Assembly: GCA_050253335.1 (NCBI GenBank)
Contig: JBFWJG010000019.1
Location: 1-39,428 of the forward strand
Reading direction: 5' to 3'
Origin: Deferribacterales bacterium
GTDB lineage: Bacteria > Chrysiogenota > Deferribacteres > Deferribacterales > Geovibrionaceae
DNA: 39,428 nt
Part shown: in pieces, positions 53-15,727 of the stretch
Numbering within the stretch: the stretch's first letter is position 1
Layout: each line of letters starts with the position of its first letter
Made by a program: the position numbers and the translations under genes
Notes under the pieces: generated by a model
Told to the model about the DNA's origin: nothing
Database searches by the model: none
What the model saw: the letters and a program-made list of their open reading frames with translations, nothing else

Positions 53-250
53 TTAGCCTTTTTTATAAACTTCGATTGCAAAGTCGGGACACCTAAGCTC
101 GCACTGCATGCAAGCTATGCACTTGTCAAGGTCGGCGACATGCGCTTTAAAGTCCTTCATATCAAGGACTTTGGTAGGACAGAGTTCCACGCAGATTTCG
201 CAACCCTTGCAGTACTCTACAATAATGTTAATGCTTTCTGCCTTACCCAT
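53..250 (-). CDS. oorD: 2x[4Fe-4S] ferredoxin, 2-oxoglutarate oxidoreductase delta subunit
   Basis: CKGCEICVELCP and CIACMQCELRCPDFAI motifs; ATG at 250 with GGAGAAG SD (ORF track start at 295 is probably too long). Confidence 0.88.
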   Translation of the reverse strand: MGKAESINIIVEYCKGCEICVELCPTKVLDMKDFKAHVADLDKCIACMQCELRCPDFAIEVYKKG

Positions 251-362
251 TAACTTCTCCTTTTGTAATTGCGGCAGCCTATACGCCGGCCGCATTCAGA
301 ACACACACTCAGCCCAGAGCCGCTGAGATCGGGCCTTGTGCGAATCCTCTACTTTTATATTT

Positions 363-394
363 AGGCCGCCCGCATACCCCAATGCGGACGGCCT
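363..394. other. GC-rich stem-loop immediately after the sucD stop (stabiliser or attenuator-like)
   Basis: AGGCCGCCCGCAT/ATGCGGACGGCCT inverted repeat; no U-tract on the minus (coding) strand. Confidence 0.5.
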
Positions 395-401
395 TTTATT
401 T

Positions 402-1283
402 CTAAATTTTCCCGAGAACCTCGGCAACTTTTTTACCGATGTCCGAAGGTAACTCCACAACATGAACGCCGCACTCGGCAAGCCTTTTCATCTTTGAGGC
501 CGCCGTGTCGTCCCCGCCGGAGATTATTGCTCCCGCGTGACCCATTCTTTTACCCTTGGGCGCGGTCTGTCCGGCTATGAAGCTGACTACGGGCTTCGAA
601 AAGTTGTTTTTAATCCATTCCCCTGCCTTAACCTCTGCCTGGCCGCCGATTTCGCCGATCAGAACCACAAGCTCCGTCTGCGCGTCGTACTCAAACATTT
701 CCAGCAGGTCGATATATTTAAGACCTATTACAGGATCTCCGCCTATTCCCACACAAGTTGACTGTCCGAGACCGTATGCGCTTACCTGCTTAACGGCTTC
801 ATAAGTCAGTGTGCCCGATTTTGAAATAATTCCCACTGTTCCGGGAGTATGTATTTCGCCGGGCATAATCCCCATCTTGCATTCGCCGGGCGTGATTACG
901 CCGGGGCAGTTGGGGCCTATGAGCATTGTCCTTGAACCTGTGGTTTTTATCATCCTTTTAACCGCGAGCATGTCCCTTACGGGTATGCCTTCGGTAATGC
1001 ACACGCAAACATCAAGGTTTGCATCCACCGCTTCCATGATGGAGTCAGCAGCATACGCGGGCGGAACATAAATGATGGACGCATTGGCTCCTGTTGCTCT
1101 CACTGCTTCTTCAACAGTGTCAAACACGGGAGTGCCGTCTACGTTTTCTCCGCCTTTGCCCGGAACGACACCTGCTACGATGTTTGTTCCGTATTCTTTC
1201 ATCTTGGCTGCGTGGAATTTTCCCTGACTGCCTGTAAGGCCCTGTACAATAACCTTGGTCCTGTTATTTATAAGTATGCTCAT
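402..1283 (-). CDS. sucD: succinyl-CoA synthetase alpha subunit
   Basis: [30 protein letters not shown] and the phospho-His motif RMGHAGAI. Confidence 0.98.
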
Positions 1284-7260: not shown

Positions 7261-7518
7261 TCAGTCGTAAAAATCTATATTCATGGAATTTCTCTTCTGC
7301 ACAAACTCCGCTATGCTCTCCTTCGCTATGCGCCAGTGCCCCTTGCCGTCTGCCCGGGTGTTCCATGCGGGCAGCTCCACCCGCCAGATCCACCGCTTCA
7401 CGGTAAGCGGATTTACCTGAAGAACCTCCGCCGCCTGAGATACGGACAAAAAACCGTGAGGTATCTTACTCAGCTCCTCTTTAATGCTTTTTTCCTCCCA
7501 TTCCAGCTCTCTGTACAT
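7261..7518 (-). CDS. excisionase-like (MerR-type/HTH_17) helix-turn-helix protein
   Basis: LSVSQAAEVLQVNPLTVKRWI...LPA...GHWRI pattern; GGAGGGG SD upstream. Confidence 0.85.
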   Translation of the reverse strand: MYRELEWEEKSIKEELSKIPHGFLSVSQAAEVLQVNPLTVKRWIWRVELPAWNTRADGKGHWRIAKESIAEFVQKRNSMNIDFYD

Positions 7519-7535
7519 TGCACCCCTCCATAATC

Positions 7536-7616
7536 ACAAATTATATTTGTTAATACACAAATCGTGCGTATAAATCAACAATAATTTTTTGTTATAATTT
7601 TACACAAATTTCATGT
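7536..7616. promoter_or_regulatory. divergent control region with four 15-bp operator-like boxes (ACA-N9-YGT)
   Basis: ACAAATTATATTTGT 7536-7550, ACACAAATCGTGCGT 7555-7569, ACAATAATTTTTTGT 7578-7592, ACACAAATTTCATGT 7602-7616. Confidence 0.65.
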
Positions 7617-7628
7617 ATCTTTGTTTCC

Positions 7629-8009
7629 ATGGATTTAGCAGAAAGATTAAAAACCCTCAGAAAGCATTTCAGGATATCCCAGACAGACATAGGAGACATT
7701 CTCTCCGTGCGTCAGCAGGCCGTGTCCCATTACGAGAAATCGGGTAATATTGACGCGGCGAAGCTTGAGGTTCTGGCGGATCATTTCGGGCTGGACATAA
7801 AGTTTTTTTATGAGAAGGCTCCTCTGGAAAATTATCTGCACTCCGGAAGGCAGACTGTCCGCCCTCTTTCATCTTCGGGCGGAATTCCGATTCCGGCGGG
7901 CTGGGATACTCTTCTGGAAAGAATAAGCCGCCTGAGCTACACAAATATAAAAAACATTGAGAAAGTCATTGTGCCGCTGGTGGAAGTTTTTGAGGGTTCA
8001 AAAGAATAA
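7629..8009 (+). CDS. XRE/Cro-CI family transcriptional repressor
   Basis: LAERLKTLRKHFRISQTDIGDILSVRQQAVSHYEK..IDAAKLEVLADHFGL HTH_3 signature; short helical C-terminus, no S24 peptidase domain. Confidence 0.9.
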   Translation: MDLAERLKTLRKHFRISQTDIGDILSVRQQAVSHYEKSGNIDAAKLEVLADHFGLDIKFFYEKAPLENYLHSGRQTVRPLSSSGGIPIPAGWDTLLERISRLSYTNIKNIEKVIVPLVEVFEGSKE

Positions 8010-8052
8010 AATCCGGCCGCTCTGAAGCCGCATTTTTGCCGGAGTCTGAATA

Positions 8053-10209
8053 ATGGGGAGTATCTTCAAAAACCCCATACTATTCATGGAGTTTTCTGAA
8101 AATTTTGTTAAAGCGCGTCCCGCTTCCGGCATCCCCGTGAAGCCCAGAATGTCGGGACATCCGCCCCTCAGCAGGGGGACAATTGTCCGCATGATGGAGG
8201 AAGGATTCTGCTTTTACAGAAATTTCGAATACAACAAAGGGCTTCCGGTCGTGGAAAAATTTATGCTGAGGGAGAACTCGCTGGCAAAGTCCCTCCGCTA
8301 CAGTTTTATTGAAACAACAAAAATATCCCTTATCGGCTCTTCCGGACAGACAGGATTCCTTTTCTCCGTTGAGGACGATTCTGAGCTTTCCAGAATATGC
8401 AGCATACTCCGCTTCAGCAGAAGCAAATCCCTTGAAGCATCTCTCACGCATATTGAGAACATAGGCGGATTTTATCCGAACGAAAAGCTGGAGCTTTCCC
8501 GCGGCTTTGTCCGGAGTGCGGTGTTTGACAAATCATCCGGCAGGCTGATACGCCTGCGCTGTTTCCCTTTCCATGACGCAAGGGAGAAAGTTGCCTGTTT
8601 TCTCAATGATCTCGGCGCATCATCAGTGAAGGTGCATCCATTTTCCGCAAGCTCGGTTTTCATCGAGGCTTATCTCACGGACTACAAGCCGAAAATCACC
8701 GCACTCCTTAACCACAGCTACATAAGCGAGATCTCAGAACCTGAAGCGATAGGGATAACCGAGCATTATCTCCGCAGGGAGGATCTTTTCGAGGACTGTG
8801 TGACAGAGAAAACAGCAGGGCAGACCTACCCTGCCGTAGGGATAATAGATTCCGGCGTGGCGGAGAACTCTTTTCTGAGGAAATGGGAGGCGGGACGTGA
8901 GCTTTTTGTTGAGCCGGAGCACATGGACACCGCTCACGGAACCTTCGTGACGGGACGGGCTCTTGTCTGCGGAGAGAGTTTCGGCGGAACGGAGTTTCTT
9001 GATGTGGCGGTTATGCCCGGGCGGAACGGAACGCCCCCTGATCTGGCAAGGCTCGCGGAAATACTCCGCGATGTGGTTCCCAGATACAGCAACAGAATCA
9101 AGATATGGAACCTCTCGCTGGGCACGGACATGACAGCGGGAGAGAATATAAGCCTGTTCGCGTATATACTGGACAGCATTCAGCGGGAGCAGGATGTTCT
9201 GTTTGTTCTGCCTTCGGGAAACTACACGCCTTTGCGCACATGGGGCACGGAAGAGCTCAGGGATGATGACCTAATAACAATTCCCGCAGAAAGCCTGTTC
9301 GCCCTCACAGTGGGCTCAGTCAGCCACATTGAAACAAATCTCACGCCCATCCACTCCCCCTCTCTCTTCTCAAGGCGGGGCAGAGGAGTCTTCTCGTCAG
9401 TGAAGCCGGAGCTGGTATATTACGGCGGAACCCATGAACAGCGTTTCGGCCAGCAGATCCCCAGAGGGGTTTTCTCCATAGGCAAGTTCAATGAAATAGC
9501 CGAAGATACAGGAACAAGCCACGCCGCCCCCGCAGTAGCCTCCGCCGCGGCGAAGCTGCACTCTCTTCTGGGGAAAGCCGCCACGGTGGACGCCGTGAAA
9601 GCCCTCATGATCCACAAAGCATCGGGCGGAAGCCCCGAAGGAACATATACGGGCTGGGGACTGCCGGAGCAGCCGGAAAATATAATGAGAACAGACGGCA
9701 GCACCGTAACTTTGCTCCATACAGGTATCTACAGCAAAGGAAACTATATAGAAACAGGAGCAGTGCCTGTTCCTCCGGAAATGCTGAAAGACGGAAAGCT
9801 AACCGGCGCAGTGAGGATAACTCTTTCCTGCCGACCGCCTGTCAGCACAGGTTATCCGGGCTACTATACCTGCGCCAGCCTGAAGGCTTCTCTGGGCTAT
9901 TACAAAAACGGTAAGTGGAACAGCCTTGTCACAGAGCGCAATCTCAGGTTTCTCCCTGACACCCCTGCGGAAAAAAACGGTTTTCTGTGGCTCCCGATGA
10001 AGGATTACTGCGCCGAATTCAGCACAGCCTTCAGTGCGGACAGTTTTTACATAAGGATAACAGCGTCAAAGAGAGACTTCTGGAAGGAGCCGCTGAACGT
10101 GCCTTACGCGGCGGTAATCTCATTCATAAGCACAAGCGGGGGGAATTTTACAAGTTTTAAAAAAATTATGGAGGAGAGAGGTACTGATTTCTGTTTTTTG
10201 GAGCTATAA
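8053..10209 (+). CDS. S8 family serine peptidase, IetS/IteS (Y4bN)-like
   Basis: Catalytic D (VGIIDSG), H (HGTFV), oxyanion N (PSGN), S (GTSHAAP); IWNLSLG, PAES..ALTVGS, FSRRG, KPELVYYGG; long N-terminal region, no signal peptide. Confidence 0.9.
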   Translation: MGSIFKNPILFMEFSENFVKARPASGIPVKPRMSGHPPLSRGTIVRMMEEGFCFYRNFEYNKGLPVVEKFMLRENSLAKSLRYSFIETTKISLIGSSGQTGFLFSVEDDSELSRICSILRFSRSKSLEASLTHIENIGGFYPNEKLELSRGFVRSAVFDKSSGRLIRLRCFPFHDAREKVACFLNDLGASSVKVHPFSASSVFIEAYLTDYKPKITALLNHSYISEISEPEAIGITEHYLRREDLFEDCVTEKTAGQTYPAVGIIDSGVAENSFLRKWEAGRELFVEPEHMDTAHGTFVTGRALVCGESFGGTEFLDVAVMPGRNGTPPDLARLAEILRDVVPRYSNRIKIWNLSLGTDMTAGENISLFAYILDSIQREQDVLFVLPSGNYTPLRTWGTEELRDDDLITIPAESLFALTVGSVSHIETNLTPIHSPSLFSRRGRGVFSSVKPELVYYGGTHEQRFGQQIPRGVFSIGKFNEIAEDTGTSHAAPAVASAAAKLHSLLGKAATVDAVKALMIHKASGGSPEGTYTGWGLPEQPENIMRTDGSTVTLLHTGIYSKGNYIETGAVPVPPEMLKDGKLTGAVRITLSCRPPVSTGYPGYYTCASLKASLGYYKNGKWNSLVTERNLRFLPDTPAEKNGFLWLPMKDYCAEFSTAFSADSFYIRITASKRDFWKEPLNVPYAAVISFISTSGGNFTSFKKIMEERGTDFCFLEL

Positions 10210-10308
10210 TAGATTATAAAGTCAAAAGCGCAGGGTATTTATTTCAATGGCATTGATATATTCCCTTTTCCGTATTACTATTGTGAAAGATATCATCAGG
10301 AGTGATTG

Positions 10309-10668
10309 ATGACCAAAGATTTATCAAAGCTGAGCATACTTTATGTCGAGGATGAGTCCGTTACGAGAATGGCGGTTACCCGCGTCCTTCAGAAGCGTGT
10401 CGGCAGCATCTACCCCGCAAAAGACGGCAAAGAAGGACTGGCCATGTTTCTGGAACACAGACCCGACATGGTGCTTACGGATCTTCAGATGCCTGTTATG
10501 GACGGCTGGGAGATGATATCGGAAATACGCAAAGTTGCTCCCTCTGTCCCCATTATAGTTATATCCGCCTATGAGTATGACAACAGTGACCACTCAGTGA
10601 CCGATTCCATAGTTAAGCCGGTTATCAAAGACACTCTTTTTGAAAAAATCGAATACTGTTCAAAATAA
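10309..10668 (+). CDS. single-domain response regulator (receiver only)
   Basis: ILYVEDE, PDMVLTDLQMPVMDG, IVISA, KP; AGGAG 6 nt before ATG 10309. Confidence 0.93.
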   Translation: MTKDLSKLSILYVEDESVTRMAVTRVLQKRVGSIYPAKDGKEGLAMFLEHRPDMVLTDLQMPVMDGWEMISEIRKVAPSVPIIVISAYEYDNSDHSVTDSIVKPVIKDTLFEKIEYCSK

Positions 10669-10693
10669 AAAAAGAGGGGCTTCTGCAAGCCCC
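10667..10693 (-). terminator. intrinsic terminator of fumC (between convergent genes)
   Basis: GGGGCTT-4nt-AAGCCCC hairpin followed by a T-run on the minus strand. Confidence 0.75.
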
Positions 10694-10704
10694 CCTGCCC
10701 TTGT

Positions 10705-15517: not shown

Positions 15518-15610
15518 CGGAGGGGGAGGGATTTGAACCCTCGGTACGGTATAAACACCGTACACTCGCTTAGCAGGCGAGCGCCTTCGACCTAACTCGG
15601 CCACCACTCC
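15518..15610 (-). tRNA. tRNA-Ser(GCT)
   Basis: GGAGTGG 5' end, anticodon arm CTCGC-CTGCTAA-GCGAG, long variable arm, GAGGG-TTCAAAT-CCCTC T arm, G discriminator, CCA not encoded. Confidence 0.95.
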
Positions 15611-15627
15611 TTTCCTTCCTTACAAAA

Positions 15628-15716
15628 CGGAGGAGGTAGGATTCGAACCCACGGATGGCTCACACCATCAACGGTTTTCAAGACCGCCTCCTTAAGCCAG
15701 ACTCGGACACTCCTCC
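15628..15716 (-). tRNA. tRNA-Ser(TGA)
   Basis: GGAGGAG/CCTCCTCC ends, anticodon arm GCGGT-CTTGAAA-ACCGT, long variable arm, GGTTCGAATCC, CCA not encoded. Confidence 0.95.
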
Positions 15717-15727
15717 AAGGAACAAAC

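Follow-up and report, generated by a model that had tools for sequence, protein, structure and literature searches.

A phage-like regulatory switch with an IetA-less IetS-type subtilase across a family of Deferribacterales

Here we show that a three-gene module on a Deferribacterales contig of 39,428 nucleotides (JBFWJG010000019.1, assembly GCA_050253335.1; the whole of this stretch is called the window below) is laid out as a phage-like genetic switch and recurs throughout the bacterial family from which the contig comes. The module comprises a small excisionase-type regulator gene (HTH_17), a divergent gene for an XRE-family repressor and, directly after the latter, a gene for an S8 subtilase (S8) that belongs to the protease family of IetS but has no IetA ATPase beside it. 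The switch had been proposed by the initial annotation of the window and is borne out by four operators between the divergent regulators and a second operator pair at a phage-like capsid cluster; the accompanying picture of an orphan defence gene stranded in a tricarboxylic acid (TCA) cluster is an unsuitable frame, since the triplet is inherited vertically across the family and its operators recur at the capsid-cluster promoter.

We tentatively favour, at somewhat below an even chance, a reading in which the triplet belongs to a phage-derived element and S8, an IetA-less protease of the IetS lineage, acts in trans on the XRE switch by cutting the repressor. By analogy with known repressor-protease pairs, S8 would then be an anti-repressor; a toxic or lytic role of the same protease is the principal alternative, and the two roles are not mutually exclusive.

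Results

The triplet is conserved throughout the family

The source genome (G000, 2.58 Mb) belongs to the family of Geovibrio, Limisalsivibrio, Seleniivibrio and Denitrovibrio, its named members. Sixteen family genomes were compared, with the genera coded g1 (that of the window), g2 (a single genome), and g3 and g4 (together 11 loci). Recurrence of the triplet in other genomes, which the initial annotation had named as a check, was complete: all 15 other family genomes carry the three genes in the same order and orientation, an arrangement which is for that reason far beyond chance. The S8 gene itself is present in 15/15 of these genomes versus 0/25 genomes from seven sister families of the order, and a profile scan of genome contigs with the family protease alignment returned nine loci, all within the same family. 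Identity to the window proteins is 74-94% within the genus and falls in the two most distant genera to 34-37% for S8, 36-47% for XRE and 43-53% for HTH_17, the last being found in 16/16 family loci with a mean column identity of 72%.

In a FastTree phylogeny of 14 intact family proteases and 55 of 66 IetA-linked out-group proteases (11 were dropped as duplicate or short, and the two Denitrovibrio proteases with a stop codon were left out), the family proteases form one clade with support of 100 on a stem of 1.4 substitutions per site. Branching within the clade, (g2,g1),(g4,g3), matches the genera; the root is a midpoint root only, so that nesting within the IetA-linked forms and a sister position to them are both compatible with it. 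Taken together, the triplet appears to be old and vertically inherited, not a recent island.

Two Geovibrio genomes depart locally from this pattern. G003 (locus L013) and G002 (L014) are identical in nucleotides over HTH_17 and the operator region, while synonymous divergence (dS) between them is 1.31 for S8, 0.28 for XRE and 0.18 for AcnB, which implies a recombination breakpoint in or near XRE; FumC is mosaic too, so the effect is not specific to S8.

Four operators lie between the divergent regulators

The 110-bp gap between HTH_17 and XRE, from 7519 to 7628, carries four 15-bp palindromes of the form ACA-N9-TGT (O1 to O4, Table 1), spaced by 19, 23 and 24 bp in the window and by 23, 23 and 24 bp in g3/g4. 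They hold fixed positions in the 15 genomes of g1, g3 and g4, the set to which the conservation counts in Table 1 refer, though the proteins are merely 35-50% identical. The g2 genome (G004, L016) has variant operators in which CGT replaces TGT arms. The element overlapping O3 is a putative XRE promoter recognised by inspection; a simple sigma-70 scan called none there.

Dimeric helix-turn-helix (HTH) proteins of the XRE/Cro type read twofold-symmetric sites such as these, and the operators of the phage 434 repressor, ACAA-N6-TTGT, resemble them. On the strength of this symmetry and likeness we assign the sites to XRE, which most likely binds them as a dimer.

A position weight matrix (PWM) trained on no sites but the 60 of the switch, which give 46 distinct 21-mers, finds 13.6 sites scoring at least 13 per Mb of genome as background. 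Across the whole genome, only three pairs of sites are spaced by 17-27 bp, and all three belong to the switch. Outside the switch, a single one of 25,734 scanning segments of 100 bp combines a best site of at least 13 with a second of at least 9, and it is the gap between a tetratricopeptide-repeat (TPR) gene and a phage-type head-protease gene on contig C4; only 452 segments are as AT-rich as this gap (GC ≤ 0.30). In a control over 323 kb of fetched loci, sites scoring at least 13 were confined to the switch regions, the head promoters and about eight further places.

A phage-like capsid cluster carries the second operator pair

The gap on C4 belongs to a cluster of about 10 kb (locus L029, 7814-18542), outside the window and on a contig without the triplet. 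Besides a divergent gene for a TPR lipoprotein, it has genes for a head-maturation protease (phrog_976), a decoration protein (phrog_49, PF02924-like) and the major capsid protein E (PF03864, phrog_29), as well as about ten more ORFs (open reading frames); ten lack a known family, and two group with tailed-phage proteins in the ESM Atlas. In the source genome the two operators lie just upstream of the cluster's first gene, that of the head-maturation protease, and this promoter, at about 16540-16600 of C4 there, has at least one site scoring at least 13 in 12/16 genomes, with two sites about 32 bp apart in 11 of the 12. The matching gene of the g2 genome (G004, L050) contains a TAG stop inside the head-maturation protease match.

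The phyletic pattern of the capsid gene is that of the triplet (15/15 vs 0/25), with an intact copy in each of the 16 genomes and identities of 62-97%. Cluster and triplet adjoin in all 11 g3/g4 loci, with the TPR lipoprotein gene in between and housekeeping genes (FtsY and a radical-SAM enzyme) on the triplet's other side; in the other three g1 genomes and in g2 the two lie on the same contig, 70-78 kb apart, and synteny of the g1 and g4 clusters spans 13 genes. Structural genes thus conserved, syntenic and intact across the host lineage are those of an apparently domesticated element. The cluster, known from its genes alone, could be GTA-like (gene transfer agent-like) or another domesticated particle. 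The lambda-type portal PF05136 and the terminase PF05876 were not found in the source genome, the search being confined to these two portal and terminase families, and no endolysin or holin family was recognised in the cluster.

A role for the TPR protein beside the head genes as a Rap-like cytoplasmic trigger (RapI is the trigger for ImmA) was considered and dropped, as its N-terminus carries a lipoprotein-type signal by inspection, called by the lipobox rule.

The capsid link bears on an explanation that we consider unlikely, namely that the triplet works against phages on its own, as a one-protein form of IetS with two transcriptional regulators, and that its connection with the cluster is merely left over from the prophage which brought in both. 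Strong homology to IetS, the carriage of IetS-like genes by phages and plasmids, and a non-synonymous rate of S8 that is 4-8 times that of its housekeeping neighbours would all suit a defence gene; CapH/CapP or BrxR regulate other defence operons in a like manner, and in g1/g2 the triplet has left the capsid cluster with its three genes together. Defence systems, however, are rarely fixed and syntenic across a whole family, as this one is (15/15), and no other defence genes flank the triplet in either genomic context. Moreover, g1 keeps its head-promoter operator pairs despite a cluster about 70 kb or more away, so that conservation of the non-coding sites has outlasted the separation.

S8 is a divergent IetS-family subtilase

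The three genes proved real at the positions first assigned to them, including the 43-bp spacing between XRE and S8 in the window, and match Pfam HTH_17 (PF12728, E 3e-12), HTH_3 (5e-7) and Peptidase_S8 (4e-24). The suspected kinship with IetS was also confirmed: residues 8-688 of S8 align with positions 7-711 of the PADLOC IetS model PDLC02197, which has 749 (E 5e-108), and S8 also matches phrog_3964 at E 3e-89 and has 437 relatives at E ≤ 1e-30. Against the NCBIfam IteS equivalog it reaches 277.9 bits, below the cut-off of 900 bits, and in a profile search of 1.84 billion representatives the family scores above 860 bits and everything else at or below 373 bits. By these measures S8 is a divergent branch of IetS/IteS and not an equivalog. 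Its nearest out-group proteases come from unrelated phyla (Peribacillus, Acinetobacter), a spread as expected for a mobile defence gene.

The catalytic residues D266, H295, N390 and S489, described as intact from the outset, are invariant in 14 family orthologues and 116 IetS-like sequences. The order of catalytic Asp, His and Ser, the oxyanion Asn and the subtilase fold are those of the S8 family. An AlphaFold2 (AF2) model based on the 116-sequence alignment (pLDDT 93.1, pTM 0.94) divides the protein into two tandem N-terminal units, a core and a C-terminal beta domain. Each N-terminal unit has the beta-alpha-beta-beta-alpha-beta topology that we take to be that of the inhibitory subtilisin propeptide, and the model suggests a zymogen-like enzyme restrained by its own N-terminal units. 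The best Foldseek matches, ProN-Tk-SP (3afg, E 1e-24), KP-43, SubHal and Kex2/furin, are subtilases that possess both a propeptide and a beta domain at the C-terminus; the sequence match to 3afg begins at residue 153, inside the second N-terminal unit. By inspection the N-terminus has no hydrophobic signal-like stretch, and the presumed cytoplasmic location of the protein is taken solely from that inspection.

Within the genus of the window the non-synonymous rate (dN) of S8 is 0.09-0.18, compared with 0.008-0.03 for AcnB and 0.015-0.045 for FumC, and the ratio omega is about 0.07-0.11 where dS could be computed, a rough figure since dS is saturated. The gene thus appears to be under purifying selection, with invariant catalytic residues. 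Its fastest-evolving part is the C-terminal domain (dN 0.21-0.30). A conserved C-terminal tail, LEPASxMWKTC (alignment columns 731-745), is present in 9/9 aligned g3/g4 proteases and in none from g1/g2.

That S8 is a decaying passenger kept by linkage, with only the two regulators mattering, is very improbable. A stop codon does interrupt the gene in 2/16 genomes, both of them metagenome-assembled genomes of Denitrovibrio (G006, L026, TAA; G010, L027, TGA), where XRE, HTH_17 and all four operators are intact. Against decay, 14/16 copies are intact over family-level divergence (34-77% identity), the catalytic residues do not vary, omega is low as given above, and the AF2 model is confident over all three domains (pLDDT 93).

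IetA is missing from the family loci and present at every evaluable out-group locus

None of the 16 family loci has an IetA gene beside the protease. An unlinked IetA, which the initial annotation had suggested looking for, was not found in the source genome either, where the best matches to the IetA model are FtsH and ClpX. The model used (PADLOC PDLC02196) matches generic AAA+ cores or rings in all 14 control genomes, and 14/16 family genomes give FtsH-type matches only, at about 1e-36. The search can detect IetA where it is present, because it recovered copies in G008 and G002. G008 has a separate canonical ietAS pair (G008:C1:265027-267987), with a full-length IetA beside a second, distantly related S8 gene, and IetA-like genes with a TAA stop occur at G002:C1:248802-249791 and G008:C1:665175-666137; these are sporadic accessory copies, unlike the fixed triplet.

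Outside the family the protease is accompanied by its ATPase. Two plasmids and one coliphage with annotated relatives have a gene for an ATPase of 363-387 amino acids (aa) directly upstream of the protease gene. A metagenome scan yielded 80 IetS-like loci, of which 66 were evaluable (four had no callable S8 ORF and ten had less than 500 bp upstream), and in 66/66 IetA lies directly upstream, at a distance of -37 to +20 bp in all but one, where it is +525 bp. Neither XRE nor HTH_17 stands directly upstream in any of these 66 loci, three weak XRE matches being at least 1.7 kb off. The XRE gene of the triplet therefore sits in the slot that IetA holds in every evaluable out-group locus. A simple recent deletion of the ATPase in the window, one of the outcomes foreseen initially, does not fit 0/16 family loci versus 66/66 out-group loci with an ATPase at this spot, and the IetA-less state has a single origin at the base of the family. 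S8 is thus a member of the IetS protease family, yet not part of a two-gene IetAS system, because the adjacent IetA that defines such a system is missing from the family loci.

This exchange of neighbours invites a second, possible reading, which we hold with clear reserve: S8 would be a toxic or lytic output that retains the toxin activity of IetS, and XRE would have replaced IetA as its keeper, by binding, by operon repression or by both. On loss of XRE, S8 would kill or lyse the cell, and the outcome could conceivably be release of particles, as with LypABC in GTA release by Caulobacter, or abortive infection. Beyond the shared slot, a small HTH gene followed at a short gap by a larger gene, with autoregulatory palindromes, is the layout of a type II toxin-antitoxin (TA) pair, and the capsid cluster showed neither an endolysin nor a holin family that could be recognised; among the domains of S8 the C-terminal one changes most rapidly, which is frequent in regions of conflict proteins that recognise a target. 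One report (PMC13069673), in its accessible part, presents IetA as antitoxin to the toxin IetS, and the CdxB-LypABC system of Caulobacter is a precedent in what could be consulted of another (PMC13236601). Against this, a toxin co-transcribed with an ever-present repressor needs further restraint, a plain TA pair leaves the divergent HTH_17 and the four-operator layout unexplained, and S8 descends vertically and occurs in every family genome, whereas the canonical ietAS copies in these genomes are sporadic.

Repressor and protease share an operon

XRE and S8 appear to form one operon, given the short gap between them (28-43 bp in 13/16 loci, the exceptions being g2, with 58 bp, and the two genomes whose S8 is broken), the Shine-Dalgarno sequence ahead of S8 and the lack of an operator between the two genes. 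HTH_17 is monocistronic, the next gene being AcnB in g1/g2 and a convergent ORF in g3/g4; it matches the TIGR01764 excisionase-family domain (33 bits vs a cut-off of 28.8) and phrog_66. A hairpin between XRE and S8 in g1 was rejected as an attenuator, being weak and having no proper T-run on the plus strand after it. An operator-like site about 160 nt inside S8, seen in 3/4 g1 genomes and in weak form in two others, was likewise set aside as a coding by-product: it falls on the FYRNFEYN codons and is absent from the window.

Full-length relatives of XRE are confined to the family in homologue searches. In its AF2 model (pLDDT 82.9) residues 73-84 fall below 50, in a predicted disordered linker, and the two C-terminal helices (92-123) are confident and harbour the best-conserved residues; P89, G91, W92 and L117 are invariant in alignments. 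Pfam recognises no peptidase domain within XRE, and no M78/ImmA peptidase (PF06114) was found in the source genome. A complex prediction for S8 with XRE gave 0.02 against a mark of 0.32, without controls, and is not used as evidence either way.

Table 1. Positions of the module, its operators and its protein parts; nucleotide positions are those of the window
Feature	Position	Strand	Remarks
HTH_17 regulator	7261..7518	-	85 aa; excisionase/MerR-type winged helix; divergent from XRE
Operator O1	7536..7550		ACA-N9-TGT; 18 bp from HTH_17 start codon; PWM 16.9; exact 15/15
Operator O2	7555..7569		ACA-N9-CGT in source genome; PWM 18.2; exact 10/15, one mismatch 5/15
Operator O3	7578..7592		Right arm overlaps extended -10, TGnTATAAT-like, TGTTATAAT; PWM 17.2; exact 15/15
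Operator O4	7602..7616		13 bp upstream of XRE ATG; PWM 20.7, the genome's best site; exact 11/15, one mismatch 4/15
XRE-family repressor	7629..8009	+	126 aa; Pfam HTH_3
XRE, HTH	residues 1-60		AF2 and alignments
XRE, predicted disordered linker	residues ~68-88		AF2 and alignments
XRE, conserved two-helix C-terminal unit	residues 92-123		AF2 and alignments
IetS-type S8 subtilase	8053..10209	+	718 aa; Pfam Peptidase_S8
S8, tandem propeptide-like units	residues 66-139, 163-228		N-terminal; AF2
S8, core	residues ~251-540		AF2
S8, C-terminal beta domain	residues ~551-692		AF2
S8, codon of D266	8848-8850	+	Catalytic
S8, codon of H295	8935-8937	+	Catalytic
S8, codon of N390	9220-9222	+	Catalytic
S8, codon of S489	9517-9519	+	Catalytic
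Single-domain CheY-like response regulator	10306..10668	+	Pfam Response_reg; neighbour only, outside the module

Surroundings of the triplet in the window

As first described, the triplet lies among TCA-cycle genes, with succinyl-CoA ligase, malate dehydrogenase and AcnB on one flank and FumC and a class I fumarase on the other, and a scan of 36 window ORFs found no AAA+ ATPase, integrase or phage structural gene. A search of the cassette ends for direct or inverted repeats marking mobility found none that were meaningful. Beyond S8 come the response regulator, FumC, the class I fumarase and then a polysaccharide/NeuB cluster. The response regulator, directly 3' of S8 in g1 and g2 and missing there in 11/11 g3/g4 loci, has its own promoter-like site (10253-10281) and a bidirectional terminator (10673-10696). 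In two Geovibrio genomes (L013, 4044-6892, and the corresponding position in L014) the interval between AcnB and HTH_17 holds a 3.9-kb insert, absent from the window, with genes for a CRP-like regulator and for a multihaem cytochrome of 707 aa.

Two tandem tRNA-Ser genes with anticodons GCT and TGA lie on the minus strand at 15518-15717. The minus strand from 18169 to 39428 carries a long cluster of genes for making surface polysaccharide and nonulosonic acid, including NeuB, a CMP-sugar cytidylyltransferase, a DegT aminotransferase, Wzz, a heparinase II/III-like protein, glycosyltransferases and three ORFs of 405-468 aa without a Pfam family.

Discussion

In the model that we tentatively prefer, an ancestor of this Deferribacterales family would have acquired and domesticated a phage-derived element, of which the triplet would be the control switch. 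In the resting state XRE would autoregulate its own operon and repress both HTH_17 and the particle genes, with HTH_17 acting as a Cro-, Xis- or AlpA-like counter-regulator of the induced state. S8 would stay latent under the restraint of its two propeptide-like N-terminal units until, on a signal, it cut XRE in the disordered stretch that links the HTH to the dimerisation helices and so flipped the switch, as a serine-protease analogue of the metallopeptidases ImmA, IrrE and CapP. We advance with somewhat greater caution the evolutionary scenario as a whole, in which a subtilase of the IetS lineage lost IetA and became the trans-acting protease of a CI/Cro-like switch that governs a domesticated, possibly GTA-like cluster fixed family-wide.

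ICEBs1 has the gene order immR-immA with a divergent xis. We favour the anti-repressor role because the triplet repeats this layout, because XRE has no peptidase domain of its own and an exposed linker, and because M78 peptidases are absent from the genome; production of the protease along with its repressor, moreover, suits a latent sensor better than a toxin, and the model needs no missing component for inactivating the repressor. Of the two mechanisms first suggested for the protease, toxin or anti-repressor, neither is settled upon by these results, but the notion that S8 is held by transcriptional repression only is weakened, since a protease that shares an operon with the repressor is made whenever the repressor is.

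Several observations tell against this model. The head-promoter operators are absent in 3/4 Denitrovibrio genomes (G006, G010, G008) and weak (9.6) in g2. The two Denitrovibrio genomes with stop codons in S8 keep both regulators and all four operators, so the switch can persist without the protease. The genomes compared are kin, and the phyletic co-occurrence of triplet and capsid cluster amounts to a single event. Beyond the HTH, the fold matches of XRE are weak (DdrO, E 7e-3; CapH N-terminal domain, E 1e-2); the protein that binds the operators could be HTH_17, and a contact between S8 and XRE is something we infer from the analogy with repressor-protease pairs. A look for RNA sequencing runs returned none, which in itself says nothing on expression. 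Finally, the only known roles of IetS proteins are those of toxin or defence effector, as far as the accessible part of the literature source goes (PMC13069673).

Two of the three Denitrovibrio genomes without head-promoter sites are those with the broken S8. The joint loss of sites and protease may reflect decay of the coupling within Denitrovibrio, or else assembly error.

Among known systems, those of the ImmR/ImmA type pair an XRE repressor with a metallopeptidase, according to the accessible portions of two papers (PMC12828697, PMC8960796). With ImmR/ImmA (ICEBs1, phi105), IrrE/DdrO (Deinococcus) and CapP/CapH (CBASS), in which a partner protease cuts the repressor, the triplet shares an XRE protein with HTH, flexible linker and C-terminal helical unit, and with the ImmR/ImmA type also a protease gene directly downstream in the repressor operon, a divergent xis-like gene and operators in between. 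The proteases of those systems are M78/COG2856 zinc metallopeptidases of about 170-330 aa, whereas here a 718-aa S8 enzyme with propeptide-like units takes their place. The triplet thus has ImmR/ImmA-type architecture, yet it is not a member of that class because its protease is S8 and not M78. The layout of a type II TA system with an XRE antitoxin is present as well; being shared with the ImmR/ImmA type, it does not discriminate. With IetAS/IteAS, which combine an AAA+ ATPase antitoxin with an S8 toxin and serve Ti-plasmid stability and anti-phage defence, S8 shares its three-part architecture. The triplet differs from them in having no IetA, in placing XRE in the IetA slot, in being vertical and universal instead of sporadic, and in the stem of 1.4 substitutions per site that sets its proteases apart.

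A substitute for the SOS response in the manner of DdrO/IrrE is disfavoured, as an ORF of the genome passes the Pfam cut-off for an S24 peptidase and the operator has only one extra paired target.

In Pseudomonas aeruginosa, PrtR/PrtN (pyocins) and AlpR/AlpA (a lysis cassette) are cases in which a repressor and a divergent small activator control a domesticated phage structure or lysis module, and PrtR and AlpR carry their own S24 self-cleavage domain. Where these repressors cleave themselves, the XRE of the triplet has no such domain and is followed by a separate S8 protease.

In Caulobacter crescentus, a 132-aa XRE repressor, CdxB, binds promoters belonging to lypABC and to GTA activator genes, and LypABC is a toxic, defence-derived protease/ATPase system needed for lysis (PMC13236601, Nat Microbiol 2026, from the part of the article that is accessible). 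To that extent, CdxB-LypABC and the triplet share a small XRE repressor with a C-terminal dimerisation domain, a defence-derived serine protease and a domesticated phage-particle cluster, and CdxB-LypABC is the closest functional precedent for a repressor that ties a defence-type protease to a domesticated phage element. The same source describes trypsin-like peptidases and an NLR-like ATPase, apparently encoded outside the repressor operon, whereas the family studied here has a single co-transcribed S8 and no ATPase; and CdxB-LypABC governs GTA release, whereas the Deferribacterales cluster is known from its genes.

Full-text literature searches, with subscription papers and bioRxiv supplements outside their reach, returned no S8 anti-repressor, no IetS-XRE pair and no phage-derived cluster in these genera. 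Neither of the architectures that the initial annotation believed to be undescribed was found in them.

The family clade is a natural IetA-less form of IetS, stable across four genera, with a defined XRE partner and a DNA motif; with such a partner and motif to hand, what IetS cleaves and how it is restrained become directly testable. Should S8 cut the repressor, the logic of repressor plus protease would extend to a new protease class, and S8 would be the first counterpart of ImmA, IrrE and CapP in that class. Should it be a lytic output, it would provide a second, independent case, after LypABC of Caulobacter, of a defence-type protease in the service of a domesticated phage element. Either way, the Deferribacterota would have a previously undescribed, family-wide phage-derived particle cluster, together with a candidate regulator and operator.

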